A stretch of 64,000 nt of DNA, taken from positions 32,001-96,000 of IMG/VR virus record IMGVR_UViG_3300047321_000298; one strand, written 5' to 3'. How positions within the stretch are numbered: the first letter of the stretch is position 1; each line of letters starts with the position of its first letter. Below the pieces are notes generated by a model. It was not told the DNA's origin, did not search any database, and worked only from the letters and a program-made list of their open reading frames with translations. This document shows positions 3,840 through 57,084 of this stretch, in pieces. The stretch comes from a virus (taxonomy: Duplodnaviria; Caudoviricetes). A program made the position numbers and the translations under genes.

Positions 3840-5459
3840 TTAATAGCCTATTGCGAGCCAGTTAGCACCTTTCTGATCGGCTCCGATAACAGCGGACGAA
3901 TTTGTGAAACTCACAACTCCGCTGTAGTTGTTGTTGGCAACGTTTCCGGGGCCAAACAAAGAGACGCTGTTTAATACCCTCAAGCAAGCGTTAGGGAACG
4001 TAATAGGGAAATTAACGGTGGGGAACGTTTGATTGCCGGGAGTGGTGCCCCATTGGAGTATTAGTCCATCTGGTAAAACGTCATACCCGTTCCCTGCGAA
4101 CAGCGTGCCGCTACCTAGTTTTCCGCGCATTGAAAACGGGAACCAGTCCGTCCAGTTAGCACCGTTGTTGTAGCCTTGTCGCCAGTACGGGGGATACCCA
4201 CCGACACCGTGACTATCGCCACCGCCTGTATTCCACGGATACGCGATCTGCGTGATGTCTGAGCCATGCGCGCCGGACACACCGTCACCGATGTTGTGAA
4301 CCCAGATGTTGCAGTTCCAGTTGATCGGCATGTTGGCCGGTAGGTTGCCCGAAGTCGCAATGTACAGCCCAGATGCAAGCGCGTTGCTGTTCAGATCGTC
4401 CGCACTGGTCAGTTGGCGTCCGCTGCTTGTTGACGGGCTCTGAAGCATGCCGACCGCTTGAATCACGCCCGGTTGCGGCATGTACAAGCCGGAACCACCG
4501 TACGCGAGACCAGGTGTGCCCACAGTGGCGAGAGGCGCGCTCGGAGGCGGGTCGATGATCTGCGAGTAGTAAATCTTCAGTCCCGATTGCGTGGACGAAT
4601 ACAGACGGCAGTGGCTACCAACAGCCGGTGAATTCAGCAGCGGGATATTGCTGTACGTGCCATCGTTCGTCACGTTCAGATTGAACCGGTAGTTAGCGCC
4701 TGACGTAACGATGCTCGACACTGACCGGAAAAATCCGTCCGGTGTTTCGAGGACCCACTGACGATTAGCAGATGCGAGCGCAGCAGGCGTGAACAGGGCC
4801 GGTGAAAACTCAACCCATGTCGTGGACGAGTTCAGGACCGGTGCCGCGTTGTTTACCTGATAGTAGGTCGTGCCCAGAGTCCACGATGAGTCACTCGAAT
4901 TTTGCAGGAGCGACGAATCACCTGAAGGGCTTAGCTCGCGCACAACGTACAGCGGAACATCGGGGTTAGCCGATACACCGGGCGGGTACACGTCGGACCA
5001 CTGATAGATATCGAGCACGGCCGGGGGCGCGTTGATTGTGTCGATCTGGAAGACTGCAACCGACTGCTCCAACTTCAACAGGCAGTTGAACGTGTAGCTC
5101 GATACGACGTTCGTGCCCAGGCTCGAATACTTCGTTTGCGGCTCGTCAAAGACGCCCTTTGCAAACATGACACCGCCATCGAGATACAGCGCGACTTCAC
5201 CGAACTGAAAAGGACCGGCATCGACCGGAATCTGACAGATGATGTTGAGCGTGTTGTTGCCGATGTATTCGTAGCTAGTTGGCACACCTGTGAAAAGCAG
5301 GTTGCCATTCAGACCGGCATCAGTGCGTTGCGGATCGTAGCCATAGGCCGATCCAACTTCAAAGCTGGTGATGTGAATGTAGGGACCTTCAGGCATCGCG
5401 GTTGACGCGACAGCAAGCCCCGCATTGGTGATCACCAGAAGTGGTGTGCCGTTACTCAT
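3840..5459 (-). CDS. Tail fibre protein
   Basis: Baseplate-attachment N-terminus (ITNAGLA), knob-like central segment, gp53-like C-terminus LPDGLILQWG...FPITFPNAC. Confidence 0.88.
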   Translation of the reverse strand: MSNGTPLLVITNAGLAVASTAMPEGPYIHITSFEVGSAYGYDPQRTDAGLNGNLLFTGVPTSYEYIGNNTLNIICQIPVDAGPFQFGEVALYLDGGVMFAKGVFDEPQTKYSSLGTNVVSSYTFNCLLKLEQSVAVFQIDTINAPPAVLDIYQWSDVYPPGVSANPDVPLYVVRELSPSGDSSLLQNSSDSSWTLGTTYYQVNNAAPVLNSSTTWVEFSPALFTPAALASANRQWVLETPDGFFRSVSSIVTSGANYRFNLNVTNDGTYSNIPLLNSPAVGSHCRLYSSTQSGLKIYYSQIIDPPPSAPLATVGTPGLAYGGSGLYMPQPGVIQAVGMLQSPSTSSGRQLTSADDLNSNALASGLYIATSGNLPANMPINWNCNIWVHNIGDGVSGAHGSDITQIAYPWNTGGGDSHGVGGYPPYWRQGYNNGANWTDWFPFSMRGKLGSGTLFAGNGYDVLPDGLILQWGTTPGNQTFPTVNFPITFPNACLRVLNSVSLFGPGNVANNNYSGVVSFTNSSAVIGADQKGANWLAIGY

Positions 5460-5740
5460 TTACATACCTCTGTTAATGATTGAAGTGCGGGCTCTCGCAT
5501 TAGTGGTTTACCCGCGAAATGTTGATAAAATCCATTATGTCAAGTTCTGCTGCAACGCACCAAATGAATGAAATCAAATACATAGGTCAAGTAGCTGACC
5601 CTTTAATGAGTAAAAAGCGACAAAACAACACTTATTGCGTGCCCAGGCAACCAATATGCAATTGTTTTTCTGTGCAGCTATTGACAGTTTGTGCAACCCG
5701 TGCAGGTGCGAGTCATCGATGTGGAATCGAGCGGAAAAAG

Positions 5741-5835
5741 TTATCCACACGGCACGCAAGCCGCGTAGTTATCCACTTGCAGGGGAGTTGTTCACAATGC
5801 GTGAGGCTTATCCAACGCTTCGCGACTTATGCACA
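5741..5835 (+). promoter_or_regulatory. Array of five DnaA-box-like 9-mers; candidate replication origin
   Basis: TTATCCACA 5741, TTATCCACT 5769, TTGTTCACA 5788, TTATCCAAC 5808, TTATGCACA 5827; same orientation; AT-rich tract at about 5520-5680. Confidence 0.65.
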
Positions 5836-5846
5836 GCGTTGGAGCC

Positions 5847-6968
5847 TTATGCGTACTGCTGCAGGATGTCGGAGAGGCGTTCCATGTTCGTGTGCAGCCG
5901 GAAGTCTTGCCGCTCGCGTGTCGTGTGCACGTAGCCAGCCGGACGTGTCGAACCATCGAAGAACACCAGGTACAGATACTTGAAGCCCTTGTGCAGGGCC
6001 CCGCGAGCCTTGCGCGTAATCTCGTCTGTCACGCTTCCCCTATCGGCCGGGGGCTCGCTTGTGAGGTCGATCACCAGACCGCGCTTTTCGATCCACAGAT
6101 CAGGCGCGTAGTCGCGTCCTTCCGAGCGATACGTTGGGCCGGATGTATCGATAGATTGCGCAGCGATTCCCTCAGTCAGGAGCCACGGAATCGCCACCTT
6201 TTGGGTGCCAACGACCAACCACGAAGCGCCGCCCGAATCGAGCCGTTGTGGGGCGTTTTTGAAGGCCGCACGCAGCGCTTCGACGGGTTCCAGAGGCGCG
6301 ACCGGCAGCGCCTTTTTCTTGATACGCACGGGCACCGGCAGATCGTCTTCAACTTCGATCTTCAGGTTGTGTGCTGAGTCCCTGAGCTTTTCCCGCACCT
6401 CCCGCCGTTGGCTCGAACTGGTGCGTTTGCCGTTGCTGCGTTCTAGCTCGTTGCGCCGGTTTGATTCCACGCGTTTGGCTATCGCTTCCGGACGTGATCG
6501 CGGATCGACCGATGTACCGTTGGAGCGTTCAAGCTCGCGATCCATGATCATCTCTTTGTACGTCTTCGAGCGACGCAGCGCGCGGCTTCGGTTTCTGAGT
6601 TCCGGCCGCTGCGCTACGTTCGTGTACTTGCCGCCTGATCGTTCTAGCTCGTTGCGTCTGCGCGTCTCGATCTTCGCCGGGTCTTTCCACGAGCACGCAG
6701 CAGAGCAGTAGCTGATGTACTTCAGTGCGCGTTTATCGAACCGGACCGTTTCGTTGCAGCCCGGAGTCTTGCACGTTGATCGCGCGTTAGGAAACAGGTG
6801 CGTGTAGAACTCAAGCTGATTGAACCGTGAGCCCAATGCGTCCTGCAATTCACTAAACAGTTCCGCGTCTATACGGTTGCGCAGCCATGCACTGAATCCA
6901 CCTGGTCCGCTAGGTTTGGATAGCTGCAGCAGCCCCCTCACATCCTTTATAACAAGTTTCTGGTCCAT
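5847..6968 (-). CDS. Putative free-standing homing-endonuclease-like protein (Zn finger, ELERSxG repeats, degenerate PD-(D/E)xK-like C-terminus)
   Basis: CKTPGC...YCSAAC; three ELERSxG repeats; YAPDLWIE...LVIDLTS; inserted in the structural module. Confidence 0.5.
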   Translation of the reverse strand: MDQKLVIKDVRGLLQLSKPSGPGGFSAWLRNRIDAELFSELQDALGSRFNQLEFYTHLFPNARSTCKTPGCNETVRFDKRALKYISYCSAACSWKDPAKIETRRRNELERSGGKYTNVAQRPELRNRSRALRRSKTYKEMIMDRELERSNGTSVDPRSRPEAIAKRVESNRRNELERSNGKRTSSSQRREVREKLRDSAHNLKIEVEDDLPVPVRIKKKALPVAPLEPVEALRAAFKNAPQRLDSGGASWLVVGTQKVAIPWLLTEGIAAQSIDTSGPTYRSEGRDYAPDLWIEKRGLVIDLTSEPPADRGSVTDEITRKARGALHKGFKYLYLVFFDGSTRPAGYVHTTRERQDFRLHTNMERLSDILQQYA

Positions 6969-30614: not shown

Positions 30615-32123
30615 TCAATCGTCTAGGTCGTCGTCATCCTCATCACGGGCGGGCTTACGCTTCGAACTGCGCTTAGGAGCAGGTTCGTCGTCTTCATCTT
30701 CATCCGGATCGGGACGGCGCTTTTTCGAGGTGCGCTTCGGTGCCGGTTCGTCGTCTTCGTCTTCGTCGTCGCGGGACGCTTTGCCACGCTTCTTGGGCGG
30801 CTCGTCGTCTTCATCTTCGTCGTCTTCATCCGGATCAGGGCGGCGCTTCTTGTTCGACTTCGACTTGGCGCTCACGCCTTCGTCGTCCTCGTCTTCGTCT
30901 GAATCGTCATCCCCGTCATCGTCGTCTTCCTCAGAGGCACGTTTTGAGCGACCCTTGGCTGAACTGGCGCTGCTTGTGCCGGTCTTGCCTTTGCCACGAC
31001 GCGGTTCATCGTCATCATCGTCTTGATCGTCATCGTCTTCATCCTCATCGCGCGATGATTTCGAACCACGCTTCTTGGGCGGCTCATCCTCATCGTCCAG
31101 ATCGTCGTCATCGTCATCCCGCGACGGCTTACCACGCTTTTTCGAAGCGGGTTCGTCGTCCTCGTCATCCTCATCTTCATCCGGGTCGGGGCGGCGCTTG
31201 CTGCTACGCTTGGGGCGATCTTCTTCGTCCTCGTCTTCATCTTCGTCAGATGAACGACGCTTGCTGCGCTTCGGCTGCTCGTCCTCGTCCTCGTCGTCTT
31301 CATCACGCTTCTTCGAACGCTGCTTGCGCTTCGGCTCGTCATCGAGTTCGATACCGGCGCGTCTGCAGAACCCTTCGAAGTCGCGCTTCACTTCCTCGTC
31401 GGTCTGCTCGGTGACCAGGTTCGACGTGTCGTAGCGGAGAAGTGCCAGTTCTTCTTCGGTCAGCGGCGTGCGCTCGCCCAACTGAATCTGGTACTGATCA
31501 GCCGGTGACTTCTCACTGTCGTAGTAAATACGAACATCGCAGCCGTAGGCTTCGTCTGCAACACTGTATGCTTTGCTACCTGACTTCTTCGAACGAACGA
31601 CGTTCAGTCCCTTGAGTTCCTTCACCTTCTCAACGAGTGAAGGGGGCATTGCAAACACCGTCCACGGCGTCCACGTATCGGAATCCTTGTCCTTGAAACC
31701 CGACTCGCGCTCTGCACGCGTGGGCTTCGTCAGAGTTGACGGAGCCTGACGCTGTGCCGAGCGCAACAGGAAGTCCGCATAGAACTTCTTGTTGATCTGG
31801 ATCGTCATCTTCTCTTTCGCTACACCTTCGTCCTTCTCTTTCTGCCAGAGCGCGAACCACGGATCGTAGATCGTGGAATCGAACGAGCCAGATTGCGGGT
31901 CCCACGAGCGAAGATTGACCGGGAATTTCCCCTTGCCGCCGCCTTCCTTCTTCTTGTAATTAACCCAGCCGGTTGCATAGCTGTTCAGTCCGCCATACAG
32001 TCGCCCCGTTACCCATTTCTTTTCAGGAAGCTTGAGTAGGTTGACCAGGTCAGTTACCTTGACCTTTTCTGAGCGCGAGTTTGTCTTAGCGTCGTCAAAA
32101 GAGACGCTTCGTTGTTTAGCCAT
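30615..32123 (-). CDS. Probable ssDNA-binding protein (gp32-like) with ~240-aa acidic/basic low-complexity tail
   Basis: Globular N-terminal half next to the recombinase; C-terminal blocks of D/E alternating with K/R. Confidence 0.6.
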   Translation of the reverse strand: MAKQRSVSFDDAKTNSRSEKVKVTDLVNLLKLPEKKWVTGRLYGGLNSYATGWVNYKKKEGGGKGKFPVNLRSWDPQSGSFDSTIYDPWFALWQKEKDEGVAKEKMTIQINKKFYADFLLRSAQRQAPSTLTKPTRAERESGFKDKDSDTWTPWTVFAMPPSLVEKVKELKGLNVVRSKKSGSKAYSVADEAYGCDVRIYYDSEKSPADQYQIQLGERTPLTEEELALLRYDTSNLVTEQTDEEVKRDFEGFCRRAGIELDDEPKRKQRSKKRDEDDEDEDEQPKRSKRRSSDEDEDEDEEDRPKRSSKRRPDPDEDEDDEDDEPASKKRGKPSRDDDDDDLDDEDEPPKKRGSKSSRDEDEDDDDQDDDDDEPRRGKGKTGTSSASSAKGRSKRASEEDDDDGDDDSDEDEDDEGVSAKSKSNKKRRPDPDEDDEDEDDEPPKKRGKASRDDEDEDDEPAPKRTSKKRRPDPDEDEDDEPAPKRSSKRKPARDEDDDDLDD

Positions 32124-32160
32124 CTGGAAAGTCCTTTGAGGGGAGGGTTACACTATTTAT

Positions 32161-54629: not shown

Positions 54630-54666
54630 AAAAAAGGGGAGTCGGATTTTAGTTTCCGCTCCCCTT
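54630..54666 (-). terminator. Intrinsic terminator closing the RNA cluster
   Basis: AAGGGGAGCGGA...TCCGACTCCCCTTTTTT. Confidence 0.8.
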
Positions 54667-54780
54667 GCTATTTTCTTTCTTCTGGACACTTCATAGTCAA
54701 ATGTGCAGGAGAAAGAGCGAATGCAGAAATCGTAGCTGAATCTGCATCCGCACTTCGGACGTTAATCCCAATCACATAGA

Positions 54781-54963
54781 GCAAGTCATCAAGGCTAGTT
54801 ACGATAACAAGAAAAGCCGACCCTCTACCGCTGAGGTACTCACCTCCCAAGATCACTTCAGCCGACAAATGATCTAGGGCAGGTGAGACGGGATTCGAAC
54901 CCGCGTCTTTCGACTTGAACCAGTGCTCTCATCCATTGGGTGCACTGGCAACCTTCCGCCTGC
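54781..54963 (-). ncRNA. Circularly permuted tRNA-like RNA 2 (Y-RNA-like)
   Basis: T arm GCGGG-TTCGAAT-CCCGT, then CTCACCT pairing with downstream AGGTGAG, then TA and D arm CCTC-AGCGGTA-GAGG; outer stem GCAGG..AAGGTT / AGCCTT..CTTGC. Confidence 0.7.
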
Positions 54964-54986
54964 TTTAAACTGCGATTGCTTAATAC

Positions 54987-55280
54987 AATGAGATTTGGGT
55001 AATACGATCAATGAAAGTTGCCGCTCGCTGCCGCACGTCTACCAATTCCGTCACCTCTGCACCAAACACGCTGCCATACTCAAAACCGGGTTATCGGGAA
55101 CCGGCTCTGATTAGAGCAGACGACCCAAACTTTTCCCAAGAAAAGATCGCTACCGTGGGAATCCACCCCCGTCGAGAAAGGTGGCACGACTACATACAGC
55201 AGTGTGTTTGGTGCAGAGGGGTGGAGTCGAACCACCACTGAGCTTCTACTATCAACGATAACTATAACGATTTCCCATTT
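54987..55280 (-). ncRNA. Circularly permuted tRNA-like RNA 1 (Leu-like D arm, internal CCA)
   Basis: T arm GGTGG-TTCGACT-CCACC + CCTCTGC-A-CCA (55209-55236) precedes GCAGAGG-TG-ACG-GAATTGGTAGA-CGT (55035-55060); 16-bp perfect inverted repeat. Confidence 0.72.
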
Positions 55281-55289
55281 ATCTCAACT

Positions 55290-55937
55290 CTATAATTCAA
55301 TACTTTTTGAAGCGTACCGTCGTTTAGCCGCGAGTGACATATTAAGCCGCGCCTGTTCGCTGTGAACTCTTCCTCGGTTCCCCTTCCCGGTCATGCCGCG
55401 TCGTTGACCTTCCGACATGTTCATGCGGGACTGTTCAGTGTGGACACGCCCAAGGTTCAGCCTGCCTCCCATGCTAGGAGCCTTACGGCCCGCCGCCATG
55501 TTTCTCTTAGACTGTTCCGTGTGTTTATATCCACGTTCACGATGCTGCCAAGCCTCAGCCATTTTCCGTCGCGCTTCTGCGTCGTGCATATCGCCGCTGC
55601 GTCCCTCACCGCCGTCTGTCATATTCGCTAAACACCCGGTGCCGTTGTTGCGCCGACCGTAGAAAGCTATCGTGTTGATTTCACAGCCAAACGCCTGTTT
55701 CTCCGTTAGCTCCGTGGCCTCATACTCAATGTGAATTCGCTTACCTTCGCGAATCGCCTTGCGTATGATGTGGTTCTTGTAACTTGGTTTGGCTAACAAC
55801 TCAGGCTTCAAATGATTTCTAGCACGATTTGCCTTTCCTTTTCCGACGTAGAAGGGTAGCTCTTCATCATCCACTCTGAATTTATAAACGTAATATATTC
55901 GGTGTCTATCAAAGGGCTTCCCGTTCTTTCTCGGCAT
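55290..55937 (-). mobile_element. GIY-YIG homing endonuclease with NUMOD3 repeats
   Basis: YYVYKF...FYVGKG...R GIY-YIG; HTEQSKRNM / HTEQSRMNMS / HSEQARLNMS. Confidence 0.88.
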
Positions 55938-56014
55938 GGCATAGGTCTATTTACTGTTGACTCTTCGAAATGAAATTGAATTCTATCGGAACGTCATCAG
56001 AACGCAACAGACGG

Positions 56015-56208: not shown

Positions 56209-57003
56209 TTAAACCTGGTTGCTGGCTGGCGGATTACGCAGCGGCTCAAGGATCACTGCAATCAGGTCGCGGCCGATGTTCTGCGTCATCACAGGCACCG
56301 AGTTCGCGCGGGTCCGAGCCTGCTTAACAGCCGTGATCAGTTCGTCCAGAGTCGCGATAACCTGCGCCTTCTGGATTGCGGTCGTCGCGCCCGACACGTT
56401 TTCCTGCGTGAACGTGCCGATGATCTTGTCGCTGGTCACTTCCTTGACCTGTGCCGGGTGCTTGTCCGAGTGCGGGTACAGGACCACGGGCACAGTCTGC
56501 TTTTCGGTCTTGGTCGTGATCGACGGATGTGCTGCCTTCCACGTACCGGCTTGTGCCGCGTTGGGGTCGATGCGCCAATCCTTCGATGCGTCCAGCGTCG
56601 GGATTTGCATCGCGAGCTTGCGCAGTTCGCCCAGACGCACTTCCAGACCCATCAACTCATCGACCGGCACATTCTCTGCGAATGTTTGTCCACGGAATTC
56701 GATGTTGGCGAGAGCGGTCGTGTTGGTCAGGTTCTTCGACGCCAGAACGTCTTCGGCCTTCGCCCAGTAGCTCAGGAAGTAGTCCAGAGTCGTGAGCACC
56801 GTTGTCGGCAGCGTCTTATCCTGGCGCGCGGCCTTTTCGAGGTCTTCGTTGTTCGGATCGTCACCGAGCAGCTTCAGGGTCTTCGTGAAGCCCGTGAAGT
56901 AGTTGTCACCCTTTTCAAATTTCGTCAGGGTGTCCTTAGCCATCGCGTCGCGCGAATTTGTTGCCGTCTTTTCAGCGGCCAACAGTTCATGAAGTTGAGC
57001 CAT
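56209..57003 (-). CDS. Conserved-looking helical phage protein (MAQLHELLAAEK... family)
   Basis: Resembles a widespread phage/bacterial hypothetical family (recalled, not searched). Confidence 0.7.
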   Translation of the reverse strand: MAQLHELLAAEKTATNSRDAMAKDTLTKFEKGDNYFTGFTKTLKLLGDDPNNEDLEKAARQDKTLPTTVLTTLDYFLSYWAKAEDVLASKNLTNTTALANIEFRGQTFAENVPVDELMGLEVRLGELRKLAMQIPTLDASKDWRIDPNAAQAGTWKAAHPSITTKTEKQTVPVVLYPHSDKHPAQVKEVTSDKIIGTFTQENVSGATTAIQKAQVIATLDELITAVKQARTRANSVPVMTQNIGRDLIAVILEPLRNPPASNQV

Positions 57004-57084
57004 GTGTGTTTGTATGAGCAAGAGTTATGGGGCCTTACACTTCTTATTTACTGGAGCGTCCACGTTTCCGCTCGATTATTTTAG

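Follow-up and report, generated by a model that had tools for sequence, protein, structure and literature searches.

The DNA considered here is a stretch of 64,000 nucleotides (nt) from a virus of the Caudoviricetes (IMG/VR record IMGVR_UViG_3300047321_000298, positions 32,001 to 96,000), hereafter called the window, which is part of a complete 245.5-kilobase (kb) jumbo phage genome with terminal repeats, related to the Ralstonia phage phiRSL1. At positions 54987 to 55280, the minus strand of the window carries the parts of a transfer RNA (tRNA) in circularly permuted order, and the locus raises the question of what kind of RNA this is. The tRNA-like element, named domain A, was found to be probably one part of a structured non-coding RNA of about 650 nt (about 55286-54630, minus strand), which contains two permuted tRNA mimics, domains A and B, and is linked to a gene for a DUF7873 protein. 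A probability of about 0.75 was assigned to this reading. The RNA does not decode, and it is not a Ro60 partner in this phage. Positions are those of the window, and related loci are denoted by L numbers.

Permuted tRNA Core of Domain A

The permuted order and the positions of its elements had been proposed in a preliminary description of the locus, and direct reading and a structural scan agreed on both, on the minus strand. The parts of domain A were as follows.

55240..55286, minus strand: 5′ strand of the closing helix; pairing with the 3′ flank at −27.4 kcal/mol
55236-55220, minus strand: T arm GGTGG-TTCGACT-CCACC (direct reading and structural scan)
55219-55213, minus strand: acceptor 3′ strand CCTCTGC, then A73 at 55212 and CCA at 55211-55209 (direct reading and structural scan)
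55060-55054, minus strand: acceptor 5′ strand GCAGAGG, with UG next (direct reading, scan and repeat search)
55051-55035, minus strand: class-II, tRNA-Leu-type D arm ACG-GAATTGGTAGA-CGT, with a 3-base-pair (bp) stem and a GAATTGGTAGA loop (direct reading and scan)
54989..55034, minus strand: 3′ strand of the closing helix, including the conserved block CGUAUUACCC (flank-pairing test and alignment)

By direct reading, the nucleotides of the tRNA elbow (U8, A14, G18, G19, T54, psi55, C56, A58 and G53-C61) were all present in domain A. The perfect 16-bp inverted repeat noticed earlier proved to be contained in a longer one, which was located by repeat search at 55054-55074 / 55199-55219. This repeat of 21 nt was 95% complementary and consisted of the perfect 16-bp run, one A·C mismatch and then CUGC/GCAG. 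The acceptor helix therefore extends beyond its own 7 bp, across the paired A-CCA, to about 25 bp in all. In addition, the region of domain A had a folding z of −5.2 against shuffled sequences, and none of the 100 shuffles folded equally well.

A strict pattern was defined as a T arm, a 7-nt strand, a spacer, the perfect complement of the strand and a D arm. It occurred twice in the entire 245.5-kb genome, as domain A and as a copy 330 nt downstream, and it recurred at the same place in every related locus. A chance match was thus excluded, because the pattern is rare in the genome and recurrent in position.

The flanks of domain A pair with each other as a closing helix. Across the family, modules paired with their own flanks at a mean of −22.5 kcal/mol versus −15.4 kcal/mol for mismatched flanks (p = 2.5e-9), and the helix generally began right at the module edge. 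Of the flank pairings described earlier, GCUC/GAGC stood, but AAUGGGA/UCUCAUU did not, since the comparison backed UGGG/CCCA instead; the closures UGGG/CCCA and GCUC/GAGC were both kept in the relatives. The middle part of the closing helix is less certain than the core helices and the closures. Furthermore, the D-loop/stem segment GGUAGACG (55043-55036) could pair with the conserved block CGUAUUACC (55008-54999) in all six aligned phages. This pairing is invariant and so gives no covariation for or against it; it may be an alternative conformation of domain A.

Conservation and Covariation of the Modules

The related loci were fetched with the DUF7873 protein as the query. One or two permuted modules stood directly after the DUF7873 gene in 33/33 IMG/VR loci, and three more metagenomic loci (70-77% protein identity) with modules after DUF7873 brought the phage total to 36/36. 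DUF7873 was also present in 27 of the 401 sampled cyanobacterial genomes. Among the 25 cyanobacterial loci that were scored, 24 had a permuted module on the strand of DUF7873, 50-280 nt beyond the end of the gene, and no permuted module was found elsewhere in their ±1.5 kb flanks. Moreover, DUF7873 was the sole neighbouring gene (±4 kb) common to more than three of 26 non-redundant loci.

In the seed alignment of A-type modules (nine sequences), all 15 pairs of the T stem, acceptor and D stem were 100% paired, a figure that is partly the result of selection because the module scan demanded pairing, and 14 of them changed on both sides. The shuffle and slide controls and the recurrence in position are independent of this requirement of the scan: 0/500 shuffles matched, and slid registers dropped to 28-45% paired. 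A covariance model made from the seed gave scores of 42-59 bits to the A modules in non-seed loci. With regard to domain A itself, 7/7 acceptor pairs were kept with double-sided changes in the comparison with relatives, the T-stem pair at alignment columns 59/73 showed four pair types across six phages, and the D stem covaried, with A-U in the window and G-C in the relatives. The possibility that the locus is an integration-site or recombination scar was ruled out by this conservation and covariation across distant phages and bacteria.

The Whole RNA and Domain B

The features downstream of domain A were as follows.

54814..54916, minus strand: domain B, the second permuted tRNA mimic, with a 7-bp closing stem, T arm, acceptor hairpin and D arm (sub-threshold YrlA and beta-tmRNA matches, scan and consensus fold)
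54769..54982, minus strand: outer helices TAAGCAAUCGCA / UGUGAUUG and AAGGUU / AGCCUU around domain B (RNAalifold, six phages)
54949-54919 and 54808-54798, minus strand: side hairpin and mini-hairpin GUUAUCGUAAC, respectively, near domain B (RNAalifold, six phages)
54682..54768, minus strand: three conserved 3′ hairpins (six-phage alignment)
54630..54664, minus strand: intrinsic terminator GGGGAGCGGA ... UCCGACUCCCC with a U run (direct reading)

Domain B had the order T arm, CTCACCT, 35-nt hairpin, AGGTGAG and D arm (module 54904-54822), with position 1 of its acceptor 5′ strand at 54845, and its consensus fold was accompanied by many double-sided changes. The same two-domain RNA is carried by phiRSL1. 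In the alignment of the whole unit from six phages (727 columns), RNAalifold gave 143 consensus pairs, 55 of them with compensatory changes. The long middle 3′ hairpin kept its pairing with different sequences in 6/6 phages, and equivalent terminators were present in L003, L040, L041 and L042. The helices that wrap domain B, the 3′ hairpins and the terminator thus indicate an RNA of about 650 nt in the clade of the window, with domain A as one part; across the family, the size ranged from about 380 to 650 nt. Domains A and B are each closed by their own flanks. A single long helix around both domains was considered and rejected, as only three invariant or weak long-range pairs were found for it (alignment columns 15-17 with 708-710). 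The 'TTC' at both open ends of domain B was likewise rejected as a Glu anticodon, being lost in phiRSL1, and the closing stem there is 7 bp without a loop.

A same-sense word resembling UUAUCGU(A/U) was observed in three copies per RNA, namely 5′ of domain A, between the domains and 3′ of domain B. The copies in the window lie at about 55262-55246, 55010-54998 and 54808-54798, and equivalents were found in phiRSL1, L007 and L008. The third copy is the mini-hairpin GUUAUCGUAAC, which was invariant in six phages. The word may be a protein-binding or processing site. Concerning the long 3′ hairpin, the annotated start of the open reading frame (ORF) ORF269 of phiRSL1 (L002:2689-2934) falls within it, and the hairpin is conserved by compensatory changes in phages without an ORF269-like ORF. 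ORF269 may have been annotated wrongly; alternatively, it may overlap the RNA.

The CCA End and Decoding Capacity

The modules were first curated by position, and the sequence after the acceptor strand was then counted. N-CCA was present in 4/18 A-type modules (window, L040, L005 and L015) and in 18/29 B-type modules, for which about 0.5 would be expected by chance. The window's own domain B had GCCC in place of N-CCA. At the CCA position, the close relatives L041 and L042 had CGA or UGA, with the partner strand changed to match, which indicates that selection in domain A keeps the helix and not the CCA. A73 was kept in 15/18 A-type modules.

Domain A of the window had no anticodon arm, a point absent from the preliminary description, with only 8 nt between the D arm and the strand that pairs with the 5′ flank. 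A hairpin at the anticodon position was absent from the window, L040, L008 and L027. In other relatives the loop at this position was CUAAUCA or CUAAUAC (phiRSL1 and L032), a tetraloop (UUCG in L007, GCGA in L009) or irregular (L006, L025, L041 and L042), and a short non-canonical hairpin was also present in L005. When the halves were rejoined in silico, ARAGORN called 42/42 modules cloverleaves; their anticodons varied among orthologues, and many were 2 or 4 nt long. As the anticodon arms are absent, capped by tetraloops or irregular, the modules are tRNA-shaped but non-decoding. The A-type modules go back to a Leu-like tRNA of class II, with the opening on the side of the variable arm. On the unaltered minus strand, ARAGORN reported a 'tRNA-Asp (atc)' at 55209-55293. 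This call was rejected as an artefact composed of the real T arm and acceptor strand and the 3′ end of the neighbouring endonuclease gene, and it had no Rfam tRNA match.

The Insert at the Acceptor Tip

The two acceptor strands of domain A are separated by the following feature.

55061..55208, minus strand: 148-nt insert with an extension of the acceptor helix (to about 25 bp), a junction, three hairpins and the words GUAUG, UCUAAUC and GAGUA

The insert was present in one copy in the genome, and its counterpart in L003 was 98% identical. Homologous inserts of 134-167 nt were found in the window, L003, L040, L041 and L042; their shared features were the words GUAUG, UCUAAUC and GAGUA, a basal helix that covaries, and three hairpins recurring with changed stems. 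Among the hairpins that the preliminary description had placed in the insert, CCACC/GGUGG and the hairpin with the UUGGGA loop recurred in this manner, but GCUCU/AGAGC is uncertain, the conserved element there being UCUAAUC. In phiRSL1, the same hairpin was closed by only about 10 nt, and L005 had just the base of the insert in common. Spacers elsewhere in the family ranged from 5 to 161 nt. Moreover, the acceptor hairpin of domain B in L005 (L005:5351-5890) held an insertion of about 500 nt encoding an HNH-type homing endonuclease. Since the spacer lengths vary, phiRSL1 lacks the insert and the tip in L005 holds an endonuclease gene, the tip of the acceptor hairpin is a site permissive for insertion, and the insert of the window is a conserved, lineage-specific expansion with three hairpins.

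Two other explanations of the insert were rejected, as was a long-range pairing of one of its words. A group I intron or self-cleaving ribozyme gave no Rfam match at E ≤ 10, and 148 nt is below the size of a group I core. A repeated mobile element was ruled out by the single copy in the genome. A pairing of the UCUAAUC word with the 3′ hairpin GGAUUAAC was lost in L040 and L042. As for the HNH gene of L005, its open frame spans 5353-5859, the start is likely the first ATG a few codons in, and it is flanked by the extension helix UCACUGUGUAU/AUACAGUGA.

The DUF7873 Protein

The gene to which the RNA is linked was as follows.

56209..57021, minus strand: DUF7873 gene (Pfam PF25283, E 5.5e-65), single-copy in the genome

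The order on the minus strand was tRNA array, DUF7873 gene, small ORF, endonuclease gene, domain A, domain B, three hairpins and terminator. Only the small ORF and the inserted endonuclease gene lie between the DUF7873 gene and the RNA modules. DUF7873 had at least 713 homologues, all unnamed; the phiRSL1 member is ORF270. Its AlphaFold model (predicted local distance difference test score of 91) consisted of long helices and a long beta-hairpin with an invariant DKHPAQ motif (D186 to Q191) at the tip. The best structural match was 3kdq (Z 9, root-mean-square deviation 7.1), which is itself of unknown function. With respect to function, PHROGs, NCBIfam, PADLOC, the PDB sequence search, VIA-align and ESM Atlas returned nothing informative. 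Literature searches found no paper mentioning DUF7873 or permuted tRNA-like RNAs in phages, and the DUF7873-linked RNA is apparently without a published description.

Several points weigh against a tRNA-mimicking RNA with a DUF7873 partner, in addition to the share of selection in the pairing figure mentioned above. Thermodynamic folding alone did not recover the T and D arms, and RNAalifold favoured the alternative pairing of the D loop with CGUAUUACC. Furthermore, the protein was near neutral in charge (median isoelectric point 6.3), a few conserved lysines being clustered around the hairpin, and Foldseek searches against the PDB and the AlphaFold database found no RNA-binding fold and no informative relative. 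For these two reasons, we infer a physical binding of DUF7873 to the RNA from the linkage of the genes only.

Genome Context and Transcription

Two further features lie between the DUF7873 gene and domain A.

55290..55937, minus strand: GIY-YIG / NUMOD3 homing endonuclease gene (Pfam NUMOD3 and LEM-3 GIY-YIG; PHROG homing endonuclease)
55947..55955, minus strand: AGTAAATAG, promoter-like phage motif just before the endonuclease start codon

The endonuclease cassette of about 665 nt was absent from L003 (L003:4981-5017), whose DUF7873 is 99% identical and whose shared RNA region is 97.5% identical to those of the window. Because the cassette is missing from this near-identical relative, the insertion of the endonuclease is recent. 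The GIY-YIG/NUMOD3 gene is not part of the RNA family, and its cassette sits between the promoter motif and the RNA.

The motif AGTAAATAR occurred in seven copies in the window, all on the minus strand, compared with about 0.2 expected. The copies at 32157, 41819, 43907, 47929, 55947, 57044 and 59735 lie upstream of genes and of the RNA. The same motif directly preceded the RNA in L003, L040-L042, phiRSL1 and L005, and each DUF7873 gene had a copy upstream as well. AGTAAATAR is probably a promoter element specific to these phages, and the copy AGTAAATAG probably marks the start of the transcription unit that runs to the terminator at 54630. With the motif ahead of the endonuclease gene, and with the cassette absent from L003, the RNA of the window phage is probably made as the tail of the endonuclease transcript.

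According to ARAGORN, 10 ordinary tRNAs lie upstream of the RNA, none of them a tRNA-Leu. The preliminary description had called for a search of the genome for Ro60/Rsr, RtcB and SmpB. RtcB was found, in one copy about 57 kb from the RNA, and it was far away in phiRSL1 too; it was present in 3/6 near-complete phage genomes that carry the DUF7873-RNA pair. SmpB was not found in the genome, and neither was a Band-7 protein or, by domain search, a tRNA-splicing endonuclease (tRNA_int_endo). Moreover, TROVE/Ro60 was found neither in the complete 245.5-kb genome nor in five near-complete relatives (0/6).

Comparison with Known Systems and Rival Explanations

The architecture of bacterial YrlA RNAs has been described as a T arm, a stem-loop that replaces the acceptor, a D arm and a long closing stem in which the two ends pair with each other (Chen et al. 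2014, PMC4201824). In M. smegmatis, YrlA carries an acceptor-like stem of 7 bp; RNase P cleaves this RNA, and CCA is added to it (PMC4201824). In addition, a review of jumbo phages noted TROVE proteins with a tRNA-like partner in few phages (PMC7824862). Domains A and B share with YrlA the order of elements and the long closing stem, and a dedicated protein gene is adjacent on the same strand, often with two RNAs or modules in tandem. The RNA of the window differs in that its partner gene is DUF7873, in that two modules lie inside one larger RNA with extra conserved helices, and in that the opening of domain A is on the side of the variable arm, where an extra non-decoding hairpin may be present.

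The earlier suggestion of a Y-RNA-like molecule was thus right with respect to the topology but not to membership of YrlA. Against the YrlA model (Rfam RF02553, gathering score 69 bits), domain A gave no match at E ≤ 10 and domain B reached 30.1 bits. With the beta-tmRNA model (gathering score 84), domain A had a partial match of 11.6 bits and domain B a match of 24.4 bits. The search with YrlA and two-piece transfer-messenger RNA (tmRNA) models, proposed at the outset, therefore yielded nothing above a gathering score. The sub-threshold Rfam matches of domain B cover 54912-54818. At gathering scores, Rfam found only ordinary tRNAs over the window, and none of the modules in 16 related loci matched at any Rfam threshold, YrlA included. 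The Ro60-binding motif GNCGAA(N0-1)G was absent from the flanks of domain A. In front of the domain B T arm, GUCGAAAG was present in the window and L040, and the aligned words were CCUGAAAG, AUUGAAUG and ACUGAAAG in phiRSL1, L041 and L042, respectively; as these words differ, the motif is not conserved in domain B.

GOLLD and ROOL are large, ornately folded non-coding RNAs of unknown function, which occur in or beside phage tRNA clusters. To our knowledge, they are not made of permuted tRNA mimics and have no dedicated gene for a protein partner. Their Rfam models gave no match here, either at gathering scores or at E ≤ 10. Burroughs and Aravind are said to have described, in the abstract of a 2016 paper, SPFH/Band-7 modules paired with a novel Ro-independent tRNA-like RNA. 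A Band-7 search of 24 DUF7873 members gave not even a weak match.

Among the rival explanations, the one closest to the preferred reading holds that RNase P cuts 5′ of G1 (55060) and that 3′ trimming proceeds to the CCA (55209), which would leave a two-piece tRNA-like RNA, perhaps leucylated. RNase III may also cut in the helix of about 25 bp, and base pairing in the acceptor and closing helices would keep the pieces joined. This refines rather than opposes the reading as a tRNA-mimicking RNA, and the window indeed has an exact 7-bp acceptor stem followed by A73-CCA. The excess of N-CCA in the B-type modules, the precedent of M. smegmatis YrlA, and the tolerance of big tip insertions such as the 500-nt gene in L005, as expected of a tip that is removed or peripheral, point in the same direction. 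Furthermore, A73 and a class-II D arm are identity features of the E. coli leucyl-tRNA synthetase, which ignores the anticodon. On the other hand, CCA follows the acceptor strand in the minority of A-type modules counted above, the CGA or UGA of L041 and L042 comes with compensating partners, the A-CCA of the window is fully paired with the 5′ leader, which is unfavourable for RNase P, and the window's domain B lacks the CCA. The two-piece, CCA-ending, leucylatable precursor proposed in the preliminary description is accordingly a doubtful, though conceivable, account of domain A. Cleavage by RNase P with 3′ trimming is a possibility at the level of the family, given that CCA is enriched in the B-type modules, that the acceptor stems are exactly 7 bp long and that M. 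smegmatis YrlA sets a precedent. A different proposal is that the RNA is a cis-acting processing or stability element of a neighbouring mRNA (DUF7873 or endonuclease), recruiting RNase P as in MALAT1-mascRNA. It would explain why the RNA is always immediately downstream of DUF7873 on the same strand, and the probable co-transcription with the endonuclease gene in the window would suit it. It is nevertheless improbable, since an intrinsic terminator lies between DUF7873 and the RNA in many loci (L025-L030), the RNA has its own copy of the promoter-like motif, and its size, two domains, 3′ hairpins and covariation exceed the needs of a 3′-end signal.

Circularly permuted tRNA genes are known in Cyanidioschyzon merolae, other algae and Thermofilum, where they give decoding tRNAs via a bulge-helix-bulge endonuclease and a ligase. 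As in these genes, the 3′ half (T arm and acceptor strand) of domain A precedes the 5′ half (acceptor strand and D arm), with the acceptor ends linked. If the locus were such a gene, an enzyme such as the phage RtcB would circularise or ligate the transcript, and a further cut would give a decoding tRNA-Leu. This would fill a gap in the phage, which encodes RtcB and whose 10 ordinary tRNAs include no Leu, and the un-permuted modules are cloverleaves to ARAGORN. However, an anticodon arm is missing from the window module, and the orthologues, with their tetraloops or irregular loops, do not agree on an anticodon. Instead of a bulge-helix-bulge there is a long conserved helix between the open ends, and no splicing endonuclease was found. 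RtcB is moreover confined to half of the pair-carrying genomes, and the same RNA occurs in cyanobacterial chromosomes with full tRNA sets. A decoding tRNA gene is for these reasons very improbable. The comparison with the two-piece tmRNA of alpha- and beta-proteobacteria and cyanobacteria, which the preliminary description had drawn, fared worse still. A precursor of this kind would have the same permuted gene order as domain A and, if cut, pieces joined by the acceptor and P2-like helices, and the weak, partial beta-tmRNA matches given above could be cited for it. By contrast, the 3-70 pair is A3-U70 and not G3·U70, the D arm is of the full tRNA-Leu type, there is no tag frame or pseudoknot region, SmpB was not found, and ARAGORN, which is able to detect permuted tmRNAs, reports none, in line with the Rfam results. 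The probability that the locus encodes a tmRNA precursor is therefore close to nil.

Proposed Function and Meaning

As a tRNA mimic, domain A retains what builds the tRNA elbow and stacks the acceptor on the T arm, namely the T arm, the 7-bp acceptor helix, the class-II D arm and A73. A hairpin closes its acceptor end, and the open ends on the variable-arm and anticodon side pair with each other in a long stem with interruptions, as in bacterial YrlA. The RNA may act with DUF7873 as a ribonucleoprotein, whose two tRNA-shaped heads could engage proteins that read this shape, among them RNase P, the enzymes of 3′ trimming, CCA addition and modification, and tRNA-directed nucleases. Cuts at the acceptor ends, if they occur, would give base-paired pieces. 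It is tentatively proposed that the pair constitutes an undescribed, Ro60-independent DUF7873 ribonucleoprotein of bacteria and phages. In this proposal, the heads capture, divert or are processed by tRNA-directed enzymes (e.g., host anticodon or acceptor nucleases, RNase P or CCA enzymes), the insert is an added binding surface, and A-CCA permits a cleaved, chargeable two-piece form.

The bacterial Y RNAs are the only well-studied permuted, tRNA-mimicking non-coding RNAs, and they are defined by their partner Ro60. Here, the same architecture was found with another genetic partner, and the DUF7873-RNA pair spans jumbo phages and cyanobacterial chromosomes without any Ro60 linkage. If the pair is a ribonucleoprotein, a protein-RNA machine would have put tRNA mimicry to use for a second time, independently, and the pair would be a candidate player in the conflict of phage and host over tRNAs. 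The copy in the window also marks the tip of the acceptor hairpin as permissive, so that it could accept tags or insertions. Natural comparisons for this copy are provided by L003, without the endonuclease gene, and by relatives that differ in whether they have the insert and whether they have CCA.

Additional Observations in Related Genomes

In phiRSL1, a tRNA-shaped sequence was observed at L002:2975-3100, with the acceptor GCGATCG/CGGTCGC, D and T arms and about 60 nt inserted in the anticodon loop; ARAGORN made no call there. RNA-repair genes were in some cases located near the pair. RtcB of the L009 genome (G004:C1:170667-171800) is encoded on the strand of the RNA, about 4 kb downstream of it. 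In L041, an RNA ligase (PF09414) was located together with an HNH/NUMOD4 endonuclease upstream of DUF7873, at a distance of 1.2 kb (L041:1-1273).

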